Positions 6,801 to 64,000 of a stretch of 64,000 nucleotides of DNA are shown here, piece after piece. Where the stretch lies: positions 1,046 through 65,045 of the forward strand of contig JBDRGY010000002.1 of NCBI GenBank assembly GCA_043817315.1. The letters run 5' to 3'. This stretch comes from Patescibacteria group bacterium (GTDB lineage: Bacteria > Patescibacteriota > Patescibacteriia > JBDRGY01). Under the pieces are notes generated by a model, which worked only from the letters and a program-made list of their open reading frames with translations, did not search any database and was not told where the DNA came from. Positions within the stretch are counted from its first letter, which is position 1, and every line of letters begins with the position of its first letter. The translations under genes and the position numbers were made by a program.

Positions 6801-8891
6801 GCCGGGGTCAGTGGCGTCGTATTTGAAAGTGAAGGCGGTCCAGGTTGCTACGGCTTTATTTCCGGCAACATCCTGAGTTTTAATCCTTAAATAGTAGGTG
6901 CCTGATGACGAAGGAGCAGCAGTATAATTGGCATCAGTAGAATAACTACCAGCAGTGGGATCACAACTAACTGCCCCAAAACACACCCAATAACCGTGGA
7001 CTCCAGATGGATTACCCTCTGGTCCGGCTGCATCAGCTGCTCCTGCCCATGTAAAATACGGTCCGGTGTGGTTGTACCAAGTGGCCGTAGTAATGGCATC
7101 GCCTCCGTTTTCGGAATAACCATTGATGGTGTCTGGATTGGTTGGCGGGGTAACATCAGAAGGGGTAAAAGCAATGGAATTATCTTCAAAGATTGGAGTG
7201 TTTCCTCCAGAGGGCGTTAAGGTCAACTGATACTGGACATACTGCTCTGTGTCAGTCACGCAGCTGTTGGCGCTCATATCTGAACCGCTTCCTATTGCCG
7301 TGCAAGTTGAAAAATCTGGAGCACCGAACATCACCGCGCTGTCAGAAGTGCGCACTTTGACTGCCACGGTACCTGAGCCCGAAGAATTATAAGCAAGATT
7401 GCCCCAGTCAGCTGAGAATTCAGTGTTAAAAATATTAGAGGTGAGTGTCCCTGTTGATTCATAATCTGATAGACTAAAATCATCGACGTAAACTGTTTTA
7501 CTAGCCTTCACCTGCACTCCATAAGTACGACTAGAAGCAGCCCCGGTTACAGTACCGGTTAGTTTGTACCAACCACCAGCATCGGCAGTGAAGGCTGTGG
7601 TCACAGTTGAGCCGTTGGCATAAAGCTCCACGTCAGCATCAGTTACTTCCGAGCCGTCAGTATAGGCGTAGGCTACTAAAGTATAAGAATTTGTATCTCC
7701 TACATTAACATTCTGTAAAAGTTCCACGGTATTTGTTCCAGAAACTACCTTGGCTGATCCTGCTCCATTTCTTTTGGTGTCGGTATCCAAAGTAAGGGTA
7801 CTGCCCAAGTTAAACTTGTTAGCCAAGAAGTTTTCCACCCCGTGGCGGTCTGCGGCTGAGATCACTTCGTCATAAATCATAAATTCAGCTATACGTCCGT
7901 TAAGATTCCAGGTACCATCGGCCCATTTGCCGATGGCTAGCCGCGGACTGGAAAAAGTGGCCTGGGAACCAATGGCGCTGACGGACTGCGATACACCATT
8001 AAACCAAAGAAAATGGCGGTTTCCAGTATTAGAAACTTGCTGGGAAAAAATCTGGAACCCCGAATCTATATTGGGACCATTGGCCACACCACCGTTGTAA
8101 TAGTTATAGTAGTCATCAGCGGTTCCTCCAGGAGCGTAGCGGGAGATAGACGATCCATTACTTGGACTGGCTGGATTGTAAATGAAGTATAGGTAATCGT
8201 AATTACTAGACGGCTGATTGGTGTAGTCAAACGAGGCCACTGAGATAACAGTGATATCAGTGATCGAAGCAATAGAAGTTAAGTCCACATAAAGCACTTC
8301 TCCGTTGCCAGCTGTATCAACGTCTGGCGAAAATTGGAGAACCGCTCGGCTATTCAACTCATCTGTTTCATAAGTCGGTCGGCGGCTGGCTGACGTTTGG
8401 GAAGCGTCGTTATTGCTGCTCGATTGGTCTCCCCAAACCTGGACGGTCTGTCCGTCTGTGGCCAGGGTTGAACCATTGTCATTATAGGCTTCAGCGTCTG
8501 CTCGCCCATAAAACTCTAAACCGCTGATAGTGGTCGGATCTATGCCCAGCCAGCTGTCTAGATCACTAGAATCATCAACGCCTGTATCAGAAAATTCCTC
8601 AGTGGCTGATACTGATACCTGCCCGGCCGTGGTAGTAGCATCAATATTTGATCCTGAAGCGTATTCGTCTACGGTCGAAGAGCCTACGCCACCACTCCAA
8701 TCAGTCTGCGTCCAGGGTGAATCGGCTGCTCGGGTAAACGGCCATTGGGTAACCAGTACAACTATAACCAATACTAAAAATACCGAGATTATCATTTGGA
8801 TTCGGTACTTAACCCGGTAAATTCTAAGCCTAGCTAAAGCCTCTTTTAGCTGCTTCCTTAAATCAGAGGTTTTACTCTGTCTGGATTTCAT
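3825..8891 (-). CDS. Giant surface protein, paralog 2 (1688 aa). It has a basic N-terminal tail, a single TM anchor, a LamG-like lectin domain, many FN3-like / purple-acid-phosphatase-N-like beta-sandwich modules, and a conserved C-terminal motif.
   Basis: Single 5-kb ORF with TM segment RIQMIISVFLVLVIVVLVTQW. LamG-like signature ...LNGRIAEFMIYDEVISAADRHGVENFLANKF. Internally duplicated ~100-aa modules (NTTNSFTFSWLEP...GYYYAINA...TQQGANVFYVVAVDTAGN and NTTNSFKFTWGEP...GYYYSINQ...TQQGTNTFYIVAIDDAGN). Repeated T.EW.T......VEYG.T..YG....H.V.L.GL...T.Y.FR units. Confidence 0.9.
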   Translation of the reverse strand: MKSRQSKTSDLRKQLKEALARLRIYRVKYRIQMIISVFLVLVIVVLVTQWPFTRAADSPWTQTDWSGGVGSSTVDEYASGSNIDATTTAGQVSVSATEEFSDTGVDDSSDLDSWLGIDPTTISGLEFYGRADAEAYNDNGSTLATDGQTVQVWGDQSSSNNDASQTSASRRPTYETDELNSRAVLQFSPDVDTAGNGEVLYVDLTSIASITDITVISVASFDYTNQPSSNYDYLYFIYNPASPSNGSSISRYAPGGTADDYYNYYNGGVANGPNIDSGFQIFSQQVSNTGNRHFLWFNGVSQSVSAIGSQATFSSPRLAIGKWADGTWNLNGRIAEFMIYDEVISAADRHGVENFLANKFNLGSTLTLDTDTKRNGAGSAKVVSGTNTVELLQNVNVGDTNSYTLVAYAYTDGSEVTDADVELYANGSTVTTAFTADAGGWYKLTGTVTGAASSRTYGVQVKASKTVYVDDFSLSDYESTGTLTSNIFNTEFSADWGNLAYNSSGSGTVAVKVRTSDSAVMFGAPDFSTCTAIGSGSDMSANSCVTDTEQYVQYQLTLTPSGGNTPIFEDNSIAFTPSDVTPPTNPDTINGYSENGGDAITTATWYNHTGPYFTWAGAADAAGPEGNPSGVHGYWVCFGAVSCDPTAGSYSTDANYTAAPSSSGTYYLRIKTQDVAGNKAVATWTAFTFKYDATDPGNPSGILPNPAGFSSEDSYSFTWNAGSDAHSGIGEYCYKTGAPAATDTCIAETTVSGITSYQEGTNVFYVRSKDVAGNLLDYYTSVNYYYSANAPSEPQNLQVDPASNTTNSFTFSWLEPASHDTTIAGYYYAINAIPNANNVTYTTQTTIGPDAFATQQGANVFYVVAVDTAGNKNWSSYSSIEFTASTSAPGIPTGIIVTDSSNREQGTFRLTVTWEEPDQVGGGIDHYKVERSDDGGDTYTEISQVTGTGYLDTGLTQNAWYCYQIKATDNAEAASAASSEVCEQARGRYYEAPSLVGNPGAETRIQSATIEWLTDRECSSFVEYGETTAYGSEAGQDDHLSSHSVNLIGLEPDTTYHYRVKFTDEDDNTGYSGDYTFETADAPSAPTSLAVAPTSNTTNSFKFTWGEPVDEGVTIEGYYYSINQEPSVTNSSYTAQTTLGPGPYATQQGTNTFYIVAIDDAGNINYDNHASIEFEANTAAPGAPTNMLIIDSSDRYTEKYMLTLTWDPPTTISSGEGEEVAYIIKRSTDNKTFEDISETQSIAYIDTSLSNETTYYYKVTAKDNAGAQSAASTVVSEIPEGRYRTPPTISAGPTVTPDSFTATITWETDREADSHAEYGLTEDLGEEQGTIEESDDHTVVLEGLNAETKYYYRIRSRDIDGNIALSSISSLTTLEAPRVSEVVVSDIKLYEATISWKTNKETTSLIDYGTTTDYGSVVYDTTGSSTLSHTLKLSGLSDGTTYHFRPTGLDATDNAPESGDYAFTTLTFPRVLSVSSENKAEGQTEVKWTTNVPTTSEVEYGNEDTPSKTQGNTALVTDHSVLVFGLEDATTYQFTVRGRDQFGYEAVSPEESFTTLEDTTPPIISDVRYEANTVGSGDTASVQIIVSWMTNEPTSSQLEYGEGLSSSTYTGSTDVNPELVIDHIMVIKDLEPARTYHFRVVATDKADNETLSDSYSVLTSRKRESFLQIVIDNLSDTFSWMSNMGNLF

Positions 8892-30297: not shown

Positions 30298-30317
30298 GAT
30301 GTTCCACGTGGAACATC
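30298..30317. promoter_or_regulatory. Perfect 20-bp palindrome GATGTTCCACGTGGAACATC upstream of tRNA-Arg(CCT)
   Basis: Read directly. It has a CACGTG core. A related palindrome GTTTCACGTGAAAC lies at 37225-37238. Confidence 0.4.
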
Positions 30318-36231: not shown

Positions 36232-36276
36232 AGGTCCGTTGCTTGAGTAGTTCAGGCTCAACCGGGCCTATTTTTT
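36232..36276 (+). terminator. Hairpin terminator after gdh
   Basis: AGGTCCG..TTGAG ... CTCAA CCGGGCCT followed by TATTTTTT. Confidence 0.55.
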
Positions 36277-36278
36277 AT

Positions 36279-36307
36279 TTGACTAAATCGCTCATATAAA
36301 ATAAGCT
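36279..36307 (+). promoter_or_regulatory. Promoter TTGACT-17-TAAGCT (TTTTTATTTGAC module) for adk
   Basis: See 31900-31928. Confidence 0.5.
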
Positions 36308-36356: not shown

Positions 36357-36995
36357 GTGAATGTTGTGCTGTTGGGCAAACCGGGCTGTGGTAAGGGCAC
36401 CCAGGCTGAGATGATAATCGAGCCCCTGGGCCTCACCCATCTTTCTACGGGGAATATCTTCCGGGAACACCTGGCACAAGGAACGGAACTGGGCAACCGG
36501 ATAAGATCCATCATGGACGACGGGGAACTGGTAGACGATACTACTACCTGCCAAGTCGTTGCTGACTTCTTGGGACAGCATCAAGGTCAGTATATTCTCT
36601 TTGATGGTTTCCCCCGCACCGTGCCTCAGGCTGACTGGCTTGATAGTGAAGATGGAATTCCTCTTGACCTGATCATATTGATGGATCTACCTGATGAGGA
36701 AGTGATCAGGAGACTAACCTCCAGAAGACAGTGTCGCCAGTGCGGCAAGATCTACAACGTGCTGTTCTTTCCTCCCCAGAAAGAGGGAGTCTGTGACGTC
36801 TGCGGCGGAGAAGTCTATCAGCGTGATGATGACTCTGAGGAAGTGGCCCGCGAGCGGCTAGAGGAATTCTACGAGGAGACAGCCCCTCTAATCGACTACT
36901 ACCGTAATCAGGGCCGCTTGACTCCTGTTGATGCTTCTGGAAGCCGCGAGGAGACTAACGCCAAGATAGTCAGTTTACTGGAGGAAATCAAATAG
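36357..36995 (+). CDS. adk: Adenylate kinase with a zinc lid; stand-alone and G+C-rich
   Basis: GTG start with RBS AAGGAGG. GKPGCGKGTQ P-loop, lid CRQCG...CDVCGG, GFPRT. Confidence 0.9.
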   Translation: MNVVLLGKPGCGKGTQAEMIIEPLGLTHLSTGNIFREHLAQGTELGNRIRSIMDDGELVDDTTTCQVVADFLGQHQGQYILFDGFPRTVPQADWLDSEDGIPLDLIILMDLPDEEVIRRLTSRRQCRQCGKIYNVLFFPPQKEGVCDVCGGEVYQRDDDSEEVARERLEEFYEETAPLIDYYRNQGRLTPVDASGSREETNAKIVSLLEEIK

Positions 36996-37002
36996 CTCTC
37001 AT

Positions 37003-37028
37003 AGTCCCGATTCCATCGGGACTTTTTA
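37003..37028 (+). terminator. Hairpin terminator after adk
   Basis: AGTCCCGA TTCCA TCGGGACT followed by TTTTT. Confidence 0.7.
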
Positions 37029-37029
37029 T

Positions 37030-37058
37030 TTGACGAATCGCCTCAAATCAAATAGCAT
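37030..37058 (+). promoter_or_regulatory. Promoter TTGACG-17-TAGCAT (TTTTTATTTGAC module) for the small peptide gene
   Basis: See 31900-31928. Confidence 0.5.
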
Positions 37059-37130
37059 AGAAGATAGTTTCGCACAAGTTCTTTCCCAGCAGAAGTCACC
37101 TAAAGAAACCTCCACCAAAGGAGGTGTCTG

Positions 37131-37211
37131 ATGAAGAATTGGAGGATTTTTATTATCTTACTTCTGCTGCTATCATCAGGTGGCATTGCCACCGCAGGCC
37201 TGTTCATCTAG
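37131..37211 (+). CDS. 26-aa hydrophobic peptide (MKNWRIFIILLLLLSSGGIATAGLFI) with its own promoter, SD-sequestering hairpin and terminator
   Basis: Strong RBS AAAGGAGG 7 nt upstream. CCTCC (37109-13) can pair with the GGAGG of the SD (37120-24). A 10-bp terminator stem AGGCCTGTTC/GAACAGGCCT plus a T-run (37196-37225) overlaps the stop codon. Confidence 0.5.
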   Translation: MKNWRIFIILLLLLSSGGIATAGLFI

Positions 37212-37334
37212 AACAGGCCTTTTTGTTTCACGTGAAACGGTTTTTGGCCAAAAACATATATTCGTTATATAATCAAAAAACGCTCTTTTAAACAATTAGG
37301 GCAAAACAAGTTTCTTCAGCCACAAGGAGGAGAG

Positions 37335-38087
37335 ATGGATCTGGGCGACAGAGGCATTGATAGGGTCGAATTTCGGCTGCTGGAAGTAAGCAACGGTCAC
37401 AGCTCTGACTGGATGACTTTCTGTGACATCAGATCCTTGTCTGATTTCCTGGACCTGATGGAAGGCTGGCAGGAGTGGCTGGTTCCAGACATTCCCGATC
37501 TTGACCGCTTCCTGGTTTGGGTCTATTTCGAGGATGGAACCAAGCGCACTTTTGAAGTAACTGAGGCCTACGCCGCAGATTACACTAACGCTCCAGAAGA
37601 GGTCACCTACCCCATTTCCTCTGAGGCCTTCTACTTCTTGGCTCGGGCCGTTCAGACTCATAGTTTCAGCTCGCTGGCCAAGCTGTCTCTTGTTCGCTGT
37701 CTGAGCGCTACAACCAAGATAGAGGTCAATAACACTTGGACTTGCGATGACCCGCATGGCTGGAAACAACGCCGAGGCAGCATCGAAGGCGATCTCTTGG
37801 GCCCTATCATCGAAGCCCTTAGGCCAGGCGACCCGGTCGGCTTTTTTATGGCCAGCCCCCAAGTTCCACATTACTGGATCAGCCTGTATGATGCCGACAA
37901 CCATCTCCTGGTTGACTTTCTGGTGTTGGATCGCCTCATCCATCTCGGCGGTCAAGCATCCGACTGGTTCTTCTTCGGCGCTGCTAACCTGCACACCTTA
38001 CTCGATGAAGTCATGCAAGGCTTCCCGGTAACATCAACCGATCTCGACGAAGTTATTGAAGCGCTGGCCCAATCAAGAAGTTACTAG
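37335..38087 (+). CDS. Hypothetical protein (250 aa), G+C-rich
   Basis: RBS AAGGAGGAGAG, TATAAT at 37268-73, strong terminator 38102-38152. The antisense ORF 37296..37994 is judged a shadow ORF. Confidence 0.65.
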   Translation: MDLGDRGIDRVEFRLLEVSNGHSSDWMTFCDIRSLSDFLDLMEGWQEWLVPDIPDLDRFLVWVYFEDGTKRTFEVTEAYAADYTNAPEEVTYPISSEAFYFLARAVQTHSFSSLAKLSLVRCLSATTKIEVNNTWTCDDPHGWKQRRGSIEGDLLGPIIEALRPGDPVGFFMASPQVPHYWISLYDADNHLLVDFLVLDRLIHLGGQASDWFFFGAANLHTLLDEVMQGFPVTSTDLDEVIEALAQSRSY

Positions 38088-38152: not shown

Positions 38153-38171
38153 ATTTGCTATAATAAAGATA

Positions 38172-38774
38172 ATGACTTATCCTAATCGTCAACTAGAAAA
38201 CAAATTGGCTAAAAAGTATCAGCGAATCGCCGGAGTGGATGAAGCCGGTCGAGGTGCTCTGGCCGGACCAATTGTAGCTGGAGCCGTGATTATGCCCCGG
38301 AAAAGAATTTTAGGTATCAAAGACTCAAAGCTGCTTTCGCCCCAAAAACGCCAGATCCTTTTTAAAGAAATTAAAAAAGAAGCGATTGCCTGGGCCATTG
38401 GTTCTGTCTCCAATAAACAAATCGATAAGATCGGTATCGGCCGGGCCAATAAGCTGGCTATTCAAAAAGCAATTGGTAAATTGAATCCTAGACCAGATTA
38501 TGTTTTAATCGACGGTAATTTAAAAATCGATTCTAAGCTTCCCTACCGCTCAATTATTGATGGTGACTATAAAATCTATGTAATTGCCGCTGCTTCTATA
38601 TTGGCCAAAGTCTATCGGGACAATCTTCTCGTCAGCTATCATCGGAAATATCCTAAATATCAACTGTCCAGTCACAAGGGGTATGGCACCAAAACCCATC
38701 TGGTCCAGCTTAAAAAGCTGGGACCGAGTCAGCTGCACCGCCTCAGTTTCCTGTCAGGCCTTTTAAAAAGGTAA
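38172..38774 (+). CDS. rnhB: Ribonuclease HII
   Basis: 200 aa. GVDEAGRGALAGP, DSK.L, SAASILAK-like AAASILAKV. Confidence 0.9.
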   Translation: MTYPNRQLENKLAKKYQRIAGVDEAGRGALAGPIVAGAVIMPRKRILGIKDSKLLSPQKRQILFKEIKKEAIAWAIGSVSNKQIDKIGIGRANKLAIQKAIGKLNPRPDYVLIDGNLKIDSKLPYRSIIDGDYKIYVIAAASILAKVYRDNLLVSYHRKYPKYQLSSHKGYGTKTHLVQLKKLGPSQLHRLSFLSGLLKR

Positions 38775-60030: not shown

Positions 60031-60284
60031 TGGTGCCGAGGGGCAGAATCGAACTGCCGACGCAAGGATTTTCAGTCCTTCGCCCCGCCCGCCGAACAAC
60101 GGCGAACTTGGAAGTAATCTACCTTTGGTGCCTGGGGCCAGAATCGGACTGGCGACGCAAGGATTTTCAGTCCTTCGCTCTACCACTGAGCTACCCAGGC
60201 TTCAAAGACAGACTACAAATTTCTTTTTCAATCAACTATATTCGCTCGGCGTTGCGGACAGGTCTACCACTGAGCTACCTCGGC
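60031..60284 (-). tRNA. Interrupted outer tRNA-Phe(GAA). 5' part 60284-60263 (positions 1-23), 179-nt insert 60262-60084, 3' part 60083-60031 (positions 24-76 including CCA).
   Basis: The 5' part is GCCGAGG TA GCTC AGTGGTA GA. The 3' part is GC G AAGGA CTGAAAA TCCTT GCGTC GGCAG TTCGATT CTGCC CCTCGGC A CCA. The acceptor pairing GCCGAGG/CCTCGGC is perfect and all loops are canonical. The insert ends form a 9-bp helix (CCTGTCCGC / GCGGGCGGG, with 2 G-U pairs). Confidence 0.55.
60126..60200 (-). tRNA. tRNA-Phe(GAA), complete, nested inside the outer tRNA-Phe insert; its T loop is non-canonical
   Basis: GCCTGGG TA GCTC AGTGGTA GAGC G AAGGA CTGAAAA TCCTT GCGTC GCCAG TCCGATT CTGGC CCCAGGC A CCA. 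The T loop reads TCCGATT, so the near-invariant U55 is C. Confidence 0.75.
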
Positions 60285-62074: not shown

Positions 62075-62151
62075 TGGTGGGCACGGATGGAGTTGAACCA
62101 TCGACCTCGTCATTATCAGTGACGCGCTCTAACCAACTGAGCTACGTGCCC
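62075..62151 (-). tRNA. tRNA-Ile(GAT), complete, CCA encoded
   Basis: GGGCACG TA GCTC AGTTGGTTA GAGC G CGTCA CTGATAA TGACG AGGTC GATGG TTCAACT CCATC CGTGCCC A CCA. The leader CTACTGCTGG pairs with the trailer CCAGCAGTAG, extending the acceptor helix by 10 bp. Confidence 0.9.
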
Positions 62152-63451: not shown

Positions 63452-64000
63452 AAAGGAGGTGATCCATCCACAGCTTCCGCTACGGATGCCTTGTTACGAC
63501 TTCGTCCCTATTATCGATCCTACCTTCGGCCCAGTAAACTGGGACTTCGGGTATTACCGACTCTCTTGACGTGACGGGCGGTGTGTACAAAACCCGAGAA
63601 CGTATTCAACGCGCCGTGGCTGATGCGCGTTTACTAGTGATTCCAGCTTCATGAGGTCGAGTTTCAGACCTCAATCCGAACTGAGACTAGGTTTGATGGG
63701 ATTAGCTCCACGTTACCGTTTCGCAAGACCCATTGTTACTAGCCATTGTAGCACGTGTGTCGCCCAGGGCGTCAGAGGACCATGCTGATCTGACGTCATC
63801 CCTTCCTTCCTCCCCCTTAAAGGGGGCAGTCTGACATGAACAATTTAACATATCACAGGGGTTGCGCTCGTTTCCGGACTTAACCGTACATCTCACGACA
63901 CGAGCTGACGACGACCATGCAGCACCTGTCACTAGGCTCCTTTGCAGGCACATTCTCCTTTCGGTGAATTTCCTAGGATGTCAAGCCCTGGTAAGGTTTC
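63452..64000 (-). rRNA. 16S rRNA, 3' terminal ~550 nt; the gene continues beyond the right window edge
   Basis: The minus strand ends ...GGATCACCTCCTTTC (anti-SD). Universal blocks are present: AAGTCGTAACAAGGCATCCGTAGC, TTGTACACACCGCCCGTCA, CAACGAGCGCAACCCC. Confidence 0.95.

Follow-up and report, generated by a model that had tools for sequence, protein, structure and literature searches.

Is a 26-codon hydrophobic open reading frame (ORF) in a Patescibacteria group bacterium a genuine gene, and if so, is its product a type I toxin? The ORF belongs to a short unit at positions 37030 to 37225 of a 64-kb stretch (64,000 nucleotides [nt]) of contig JBDRGY010000002.1, which we refer to as the window. 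Coordinates are positions in the window, and features lie on its plus strand unless stated otherwise; L162, L163, L169, and similar labels denote the loci of relatives. A sequence-only reading had proposed a stand-alone peptide gene whose Shine-Dalgarno sequence (SD) is sequestered in the manner of type I toxins. Comparison with the relatives leads us to hold, with slightly better than even confidence, that the unit is a real, independently transcribed, and translationally restrained gene whose product is a single-pass membrane peptide of 26 residues. This peptide appears to represent a family that is new but of a known kind and confined to a narrow clade of Patescibacteria.

The components that had been proposed for the unit were recovered by direct reading and consensus scanning. 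A sigma70-type promoter, TTGACG-17-TAGCAT, lies at 37030 to 37058 (-35 hexamer at 37030 to 37035, -10 hexamer at 37053 to 37058) and matches the consensus at 9 of 12 positions. The hexamers alone are weak evidence, as 8 promoter-like sites were found in 4 kb of the window, compared with 5.6 expected. An ATAGTT block (37064 to 37069) follows the -10 hexamer by 6 to 11 nt at the predicted transcription start, which we infer to be at about 37065. This would give a 5' leader of about 66 nt (37065 to 37130), the 3' part of which (approximately 37073 to 37100, ending ...AAGTTCTTTCCCAGCAGAAGTCAC) was homologous, in alignments, to the linker that follows a large RNA in the relatives. Within the leader, CCTCC (37109 to 37113) can pair with the GGAGG of the SD (37120 to 37124), as had been claimed; the two form a 6-bp hairpin with 3 additional outer pairs (-12.6 kcal/mol). 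The SD lies 6 nt upstream of the ATG at 37131, which opens a frame of 26 codons plus TAG (37131 to 37211) encoding MKNWRIFIILLLLLSSGGIATAGLFI. The stop codon (37209 to 37211) spans the loop and 3' arm of an intrinsic terminator at 37196 to 37225, comprised of a 10-bp stem (37196 to 37205 with 37211 to 37220; 6 G-C pairs), an ATCTA loop, and a T-run. The upstream gene, adk, has its own terminator at 37003 to 37028 (a 9-bp stem at 37003 to 37023, followed by a T-run), and the peptide unit therefore is separate from adk rather than part of its 3' untranslated region. In L163, L169, and L172, too, the promoter is preceded by a homologous adk terminator.

The proposal had named conservation of the ORF in relatives as a test. 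The contigs of relatives were reached through searches with NusA and RnhB; Adk searches of genome and metagenome collections returned matches of at most 53% identity. The common neighborhood in the relatives is trxB-gdh-(adk)-[slot]-rnhB-methyltransferase-yraN-nusA, and the unit recurs in the gdh/adk-rnhB slot of five other distinct relatives (L163, L162, L171, L174, and L169), each of which has a small ORF directly upstream of rnhB. The identity of these relatives to the window is 84 to 86% for NusA, where known, and 63 to 68% for RnhB. The encoded peptides are 29 amino acids (aa) long in L163 (MNKLTVFSLYLVLLTSGGIATALTGLLVF), 27 aa in L171 (MRIFRILVIRFFILVGSGFVTAGPSFF), L174 (MRISRVLTARFFILVAGGFISAGLSFF), and the conserved frame of L162 (MRISRILITRFLVLIGGGFVTAGPSFF), and 26 aa in L169, which equals L170 (MRPSRRLIIILIFVGGGFLTIGPSCF). 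Where contigs reached far enough upstream for comparison (L162, L163, L169, and L172, which carries only the RNA), both the promoter and its spacing were kept: TTGACT-17-TAACAT in L163, TTGACT-17-TAAAAT in L162, TTGACT-17-TAAGAT in L169, and TTGACG-17-TAAGAT in L172. The TAGTT after the promoter was invariant in all six aligned sequences, and a purine-rich SD preceded the ATG in every ORF-bearing sequence except L174. A search for similar peptides, also suggested previously, recovered only the syntenic copies, both by tblastn and by scanning 13,484 small ORFs from the window and the relatives' DNA with a hidden Markov model of the peptide. The gene thus is single copy and vertically inherited at one syntenic slot.

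The peptide has a basic N terminus (K2 and R5), followed by a hydrophobic stretch of about 20 residues and a small-residue motif, SSGGIATAG. Its grand average of hydropathy is 1.54, the upper end of the range for the six peptides (1.17 to 1.54). All six end in uncharged hydrophobic residues (LFI, LVF, SFF, or SCF) and have K and R only at positions 1 to 10. Each of the six sequences keeps the frame open, for which composition gives a probability of 0.28 to 0.43 in each case. All six also favor T at codon position 2 (0.50 to 0.59, compared with 0.17 to 0.34 at positions 1 and 3; 0.54 in the window). The shuffle P values for this enrichment were 0.005 to 0.057 each, and their Fisher combination over four roughly independent lineages was about 7e-4. 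In the codon alignment, internal indels are multiples of 3, and pairwise differences sum to 167, 117, and 176 at codon positions 1, 2, and 3, respectively. The ratio of nonsynonymous to synonymous divergence (pN/pS) was 0.44 to 0.89 among pairs, and the SGGIATA block of the window differs from that of L163 by three synonymous and no nonsynonymous changes. The ATG is invariant in all six sequences while its pairing partners vary, and the hydrophobic core (codons 9 to 16), which lies outside the conserved helices, stays hydrophobic while its nucleotides diverge. These coding signals are moderate, and we consider it probable that the ORF is translated.

No known protein family was recovered. The only Pfam match of the window peptide at an E value of ≤0.1 fell far below threshold (14.5 versus 27 bits), and the five homologues had no Pfam match at an E value of ≤10. 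The peptide had no NCBIfam match at an E value of ≤10, and the three peptides scanned had no PADLOC match at an E value of ≤1. We also considered a pseudogene, in which the ORF would be the remnant of the signal peptide of a longer protein, and rejected it: the short frame and the position of its stop codon recur in the relatives. Among the known proteins that the peptide resembles are the small regulatory membrane proteins of enterobacteria, such as MgtS, AcrZ, KdpF, and YohP. It shares with them a size of 26 to 31 aa, a single transmembrane helix, and a small-xxx-small packing motif but differs in having no linked partner gene or operon, in belonging to an unrelated phylum, and in showing no sequence similarity to them.

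The claim that the leader is structured and occludes the SD was borne out by folding. For the predicted transcript of 166 nt, the folding energy was -58.3 kcal/mol (z = -5.4), a stability that none of 200 shuffles reached; both the SD and the AUG are buried in this fold. The translation initiation region of the window taken alone gave a z score of -3.2 relative to shuffles, while L162 and L169 gave marginal values of about -1.9. Three helices would contribute to the occlusion. In the first, an anti-SD/SD hairpin (37104 to 37129), ACCUCC (37108 to 37113) pairs with GGAGGU (37120 to 37125), with the 3 outer pairs; its counterparts are UCUCC/GGAGG in L169, CCCU/AGGG in L162 and L171, and a weaker CUGG/CCAG in L163. 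The second, a start codon hairpin (37131 to 37153), pairs AUGAAGA (37131 to 37137) with UUUUUAU (37147 to 37153), in a register where position i pairs with position 24-i and position 1 is the A of the ATG. Out of 8 possible pairs, all 8 are formed in L162 and L171, 7 in the window, L174, and L169, and 5 in L163, with compensatory changes at pairs 5:19 (G-C/A-U), 6:18 (A-U/C-G/G-U), and 7:17 (A-U/C-G). On this covariation, the start codon hairpin is the best-supported predicted RNA element of the unit. The third helix, which the sequence-only reading had not listed, is a long-range 10-bp pairing (37087 to 37169) of CAGCAGAAGU (37087 to 37096) with ACUUCUGCUG (37160 to 37169), present in both the minimum free energy and centroid folds. 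It joins the leader to codons 10 to 13 and encloses the SD and AUG hairpins. The alignment showed that it is not conserved in the relatives, and it is therefore specific to the window. With this helix included, the window has the tightest predicted lock on its ribosome-binding region.

Two other hairpins overlap the ORF. Compensatory changes preserve the terminator stem in every relative, even in L172, from which the ORF is deleted. The folds also contain a GGUGGC-AUU-GCCACC hairpin within the ORF (37179 to 37193; codons for G-G-I-A-T). We rejected it as a selected RNA element, as the relatives keep 4 to 6 of the 6 pairs and show no double compensatory change; it probably follows from conservation of the GG..(A/V)T codons themselves.

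These elements are consistent with the following mechanism. Transcription from TTGACG-17-TAGCAT would start at about 37065 and end at the hairpin at 37196 to 37225, yielding an RNA of about 160 nt; the elements that delimit this predicted transcript are conserved. Folding of the RNA would restrain translation, with the SD held in the anti-SD hairpin and the AUG in a 7-bp hairpin with codons 6 to 8. In the window genome only, the 10-bp helix would additionally clamp the leader to codons 10 to 13. The structures are supported by folding and covariation; translation, thereby restrained in cis, would need melting, processing, or another trigger. The peptide is predicted to insert with its basic N terminus (K2 and R5) inside. 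Its small-residue face, formed by the best-conserved motif (SSGGIATAG), may pack against other helices. The partner would be either a second copy of the peptide or a membrane protein.

The description of the unit as a stand-alone gene holds for the window, where the peptide has its own predicted transcription unit. It needs qualification in that this state probably is derived, the relatives first transcribing a GC-rich structured RNA of 290 to 560 nt that lies between the conserved promoter and the ORF. This large RNA was located at 7622 to 8175 in L162, 8 to 503 in L174, 1220 to 1759 in L169, 4443 to 4930 in L172, and 2748 to 3047 in L163. It folds better than shuffled sequences (z = -4.1 in L162 and -3.6 in L174), and its 3' domain is closed by a 9-bp helix in all five sequences, with three double compensatory changes in L163. 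It also has a CCUGGYG/CRCCAGG hairpin. The L162 and L169 RNAs matched no Rfam family, OLE included, at an E value of ≤10. By eye, the relatives' RNA showed motifs reminiscent of RNase P RNA (AGUUCGGG, CUAGGG, GAGCAAAC, and UGAAUGA). This identity was rejected, as there was no covariance model match and some genomes lack the RNA or have a truncated form of it. Scans of viral contigs with two RNA motifs also were set aside, giving 0 matches and 14 matches, the latter comprised of 12 tRNA-Arg(ACG) sequences and 2 stretches of unrelated GC-rich DNA. ARAGORN found no tRNA or transfer-messenger RNA in the locus.

RNA and ORF are joined in one unit in L162, L163, L169, and L174. No such combination was found in the window, where the leader is about 66 nt, and neither blastn nor a covariance model detected a copy of the large RNA anywhere in the 64 kb. 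Only the first 10 nt or so and the last 55 nt or so of the relatives' leader are kept there. Rfam searches of the window at the gathering threshold, and of 36900 to 37400 and the relatives' RNA at an E value of ≤10, returned only subthreshold noise (on the terminator region, suhB/mmgR at 18.7 and 26 bits; also small nucleolar RNA models). In an RnhB tree, which is star-like, the window falls inside a clade whose other branches carry the large RNA, and deletion of the RNA in the window lineage therefore is the parsimonious reading. The window probably is a reduced form of an RNA-plus-peptide locus: the large RNA most likely was deleted, and local occlusion of the ribosome-binding site appears strongest there. 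As the window has only the ORF and L172 only the RNA, the two are separable modules.

Several observations weigh against reading the ORF as a translated and restrained gene. Purifying selection on it is weak, and part of its conservation is exerted at the RNA level, because conserved hairpins overlap its first 8 and last 5 codons. Occlusion of the initiation region was not significant in the shuffle test for L163 or L174; the latter lacks the SD hairpin, and its SD is degenerate. In L162, a 1-nt insertion in the T-run before the stop codon lengthens the frame to 40 aa. L172 and L173 have lost the ORF and retain the promoter, upstream RNA, and terminator, so the ORF is dispensable in at least one lineage. 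The peptide family was not found in the more distant relatives, namely, L166 and L168 (68% NusA identity for both) and L189 (57% RnhB identity). Only six ORF sequences from one narrow clade are available, three of which (L162, L171, and L174) are mutually close. Finally, the large RNA holds another conserved element resembling an SD with an AUG, GGAGGU..AUG.AA.CUC. Its frame is 9 aa long in L163 and stays open over tens of codons in L162, and the element clearly is structural rather than coding.

This last element bears on the alternative that the frame is incidental and the "ORF" is an untranslated 3' structural module, made of hairpins and a terminator, of a noncoding RNA unit. Such a module would account for the high degree of structure in the region (z = -5.4), the hairpins with compensatory changes that overlap the ORF, and its position as the tail of a long structured RNA in the relatives. 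It also would explain an SD-like sequence and AUG without a conserved ORF in the large RNA, pN/pS ratios near 1 in some pairs, and the retention of RNA and terminator without the ORF in L172. It does not readily explain the position 2 T periodicity seen in six of six sequences, the in-frame internal indels, the hydrophobicity of core codons 9 to 16 despite their divergence outside any conserved helix, or an AUG that stays invariant while its partners change. Nor would it predict that promoter, SD, ORF, and terminator were all kept in the window after loss of the large RNA. We regard an untranslated module as improbable.

The type I toxin interpretation, in which a membrane-depolarizing toxin is silenced by its own mRNA structure and by an unrecognized antisense RNA antitoxin, also seems unlikely. 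What held up of the original likeness is the small hydrophobic peptide and the occluded RBS; the toxin identity itself was not supported, there being no family match and no antisense promoter. In favor of a toxin, the product would be a short hydrophobic peptide that forms a transmembrane helix, and its mRNA places a double lock in cis over the SD and the AUG. Elements of the mRNA that sequester the RBS have been described as necessary for repressing type I toxins (PMC8309996), and the primary dinQ transcript has been described as translationally inert (PMC5066626). The loss of the ORF in L172 and its decay in L162 are as expected of an accessory toxin. Type I antitoxins are antisense RNAs, encoded in cis or trans, that pair with the toxin mRNA (PMC8309996). 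The minus strand has a site that scores like a terminator, made of the SD hairpin with TTTCTTT after it. Four relatives also share a weak promoter candidate inside the start of rnhB, TTGGGA-18-TAAAAT (9 of 12 matches), which is directed toward the ORF and could drive an antisense RNA (minus strand; 8287 to 8316 in L162, 3164 to 3193 in L163, 152 to 181 in L171, and 614 to 643 in L174). The conservation of this candidate needs no antisense function, because it lies in the conserved YPN codons of rnhB and the AT-rich rnhB promoter. No sigma70-like promoter was recovered on the minus strand near the ORF in the window, where the sequence-only reading had likewise seen no obvious antisense promoter, or in L169.

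Further evidence against a toxin comes from the peptide itself. No toxin family was recovered from Pfam, NCBIfam, or PADLOC, and the gene is single copy and syntenic. Its cationic residues are N terminal, whereas those of type I toxins generally are C terminal, with exceptions (PMC8309996). None of the papers in the library searched connected type I toxins with the candidate phyla radiation, so a toxin, if demonstrated here, would be new for the phylum. The membrane toxins TisB, DinQ, ShoB, Ibs, Hok, and Fst are like the unit in being shorter than 60 aa and hydrophobic with one predicted transmembrane helix, in having their own promoter and terminator, and in burying the SD and start codon in mRNA structure; the long structured 5' regions of the relatives are a further likeness. 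The unit differs from them in the absence of any sequence relationship, in charges confined to the N terminus, and in its single-copy, syntenic chromosomal slot.

A broader possibility, which we advance tentatively and think rather doubtful, is that the locus is a reduced form of an undescribed Patescibacteria RNA-peptide system in which the large RNA works with a 26- to 29-aa transmembrane peptide encoded at its 3' end. If so, the peptide might serve to tether the RNA to the membrane, by analogy with OLE and OapA. Alternatively, the long RNA might be the built-in cis antitoxin of a membrane toxin; the latter, if true, would be the first type I-like toxin system reported in the candidate phyla radiation. 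The window then would be read as having lost the RNA, with the peptide held in check by strengthened local hairpins. OLE RNA is a large ornate noncoding RNA with a membrane protein partner, OapA (PMC12265935). The relatives' large RNA likewise is encoded beside a predicted membrane protein, and the likeness suggests that a membrane-tethered ribonucleoprotein is possible. The case differs in that no OLE match was found in Rfam at an E value of ≤10 and the window is without the RNA. Furthermore, the partner here is a single helix of 26 to 29 aa encoded on the same transcript, and OapA is far larger. A second comparison is with dual-function RNAs that encode a small protein, namely, Staphylococcus aureus RNAIII with the 26-aa delta-hemolysin, SgrS/SgrT, SR1/SR1P, and AzuCR/AzuC. 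The relatives' unit likewise joins a conserved structured RNA with a short ORF. It differs in that its RNA (290 to 560 nt) is much larger than most such small RNAs and has no Rfam match and in that its ORF lies at the 3' end, beside the terminator. The window differs further in having no large RNA part.

Two further explanations are very improbable. The first is that the ORF encodes the precursor of a secreted short hydrophobic signaling peptide, with a signal-like N region and h region, a small-x-small site (ATA, VTA, or ISA), and a hydrophobic tail of 3 to 7 residues. The basic N terminus and hydrophobic core, followed by A/V/I-x-A and then GLFI, GPSFF, GLSFF, or LTGLLVF, fit such a layout, and SHP-type pheromone precursors are of similar size. 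The adjacent receptor or regulator gene that is the hallmark of Rgg/SHP-type pheromones is missing, however, both at the window, where the neighbors are adk, an ORF without a family match, and rnhB, and in the relatives, which have adk and rnhB there. Genes for processing or export are not linked, L169 has T-I-G in place of the small-x-small site, and the G-P-S of the tail (GGC CCG TCG) is explained by the C-terminal residues being encoded by the terminator stem. The second, a regulatory leader peptide in which a ribosome at the stop codon blocks the terminator hairpin and allows read-through into the downstream gene, would suit a stop codon inside that hairpin in all five intact ORFs and a unit that ends 30 to 45 nt before rnhB in the relatives, but it is countered by the separate promoter-like sequence of the downstream gene in the window (TTGGCC-18-TATAAT; 10 of 12 matches), by a -10 box 7 nt before the SD-less ATG of rnhB, by the lack of an antiterminator in the folds and of any run of regulatory codons, and by the different identity of the downstream gene in the window.

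The preferred reading, a restrained gene for a single-pass membrane peptide, offers a concrete candidate for studies of toxicity and partners in a surrogate host, given its comparative support and conserved translational lock. The gene tables of the related contigs have no gene called between adk and the ORFan (described below) or rnhB. Because gene callers miss such ORFs, the small membrane peptides of the reduced genomes of uncultivated Patescibacteria are essentially uncharted. The same comparison exposed the unclassified large structured RNA of the sister lineages, which lies outside the window and is a more novel lead than the peptide.

Other elements were noted in or near the same slot. 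In L166, the gdh-rnhB slot (7966 to 8086) holds a rod-like hairpin RNA of about 105 nt (-56.5 kcal/mol, z = -7.75) with no peptide ORF; it has both a promoter-like site of its own (TTGACA...TATTAT) and a terminator with a T-run. A different block, at approximately 6870 to 7000 of L162 and 2946 to 3075 of L172, lies between gdh and the adk slot and is 78% identical over 134 nt. Only minus-strand ORFs without domains are called in this block, and it may be a further noncoding element. The gdh/adk-rnhB slot repeatedly hosts independently transcribed structured RNAs, which makes it a lead for the discovery of noncoding RNAs in the phylum.

The adk copy beside the locus evolves unusually fast. Its identity is about 53 to 56% among genomes that, where NusA is known, share about 85% identity in that protein with the window (copies compared: window, 36357 to 36995; L163, 2026 to 2661; L172, 3724 to 4350; L169, 253 to 1137). 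The L169 copy has a long N-terminal extension, and in L162 adk is missing, its place being taken by about 790 bp of GC-rich sequence without a called domain. The adk promoter of the window (TTGACT-17-TAAGCT; 36271 to 36299) resembles the peptide promoter outside the hexamers as well (TTTTTATTTGAC.AA.TCGC.CA.AT.AAATA). Of the three occurrences of the 12-mer TTTTTATTTGAC in the window, one is in the peptide promoter and one in the adk promoter, each of which directly follows a terminator.

Downstream of the peptide unit, a 250-aa acidic ORFan (37335 to 38087) separates it from rnhB in the window and is absent from all relatives. Its sole match among 5.8 billion proteins was itself; it had no Pfam, PHROG, or PADLOC match, and a look-up of the exact sequence returned no record. 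The local G+C content is 0.49, compared with about 0.43 nearby. A 184-aa protein in the same slot of L168 was considered as a counterpart and found to be unrelated. Between the peptide terminator and the ORFan lie two perfect palindromes, GTTTCACGTGAAAC (37225 to 37238) and GTTTTTGGCCAAAAAC (37240 to 37255), the second of which overlaps the -35 hexamer of the ORFan promoter TTGGCC-18-TATAAT. A symmetric variant, GTTCCACGTGGAAC, is found at 30301 to 30314, upstream of a tRNA-Arg gene. All three look like operator sites. The -10-like box of rnhB (TATAAT or TATACT) ends 7 nt before its ATG, with no SD (window, 38158 to 38174; L162, 8285 to 8305; L163, 3165 to 3185), which suggests that the rnhB mRNA is leaderless.

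Elsewhere in the window, two adjacent tRNA-Phe(GAA) genes were found on the minus strand within 60031 to 60200, one of them scoring 29 bits in Rfam, exactly at the threshold. An unusually long spacer of about 1.3 kb, likewise on the minus strand, separates the 16S rRNA gene, with its 3' end at 63452, from the next tRNA-Ile gene (62075 to 62151).

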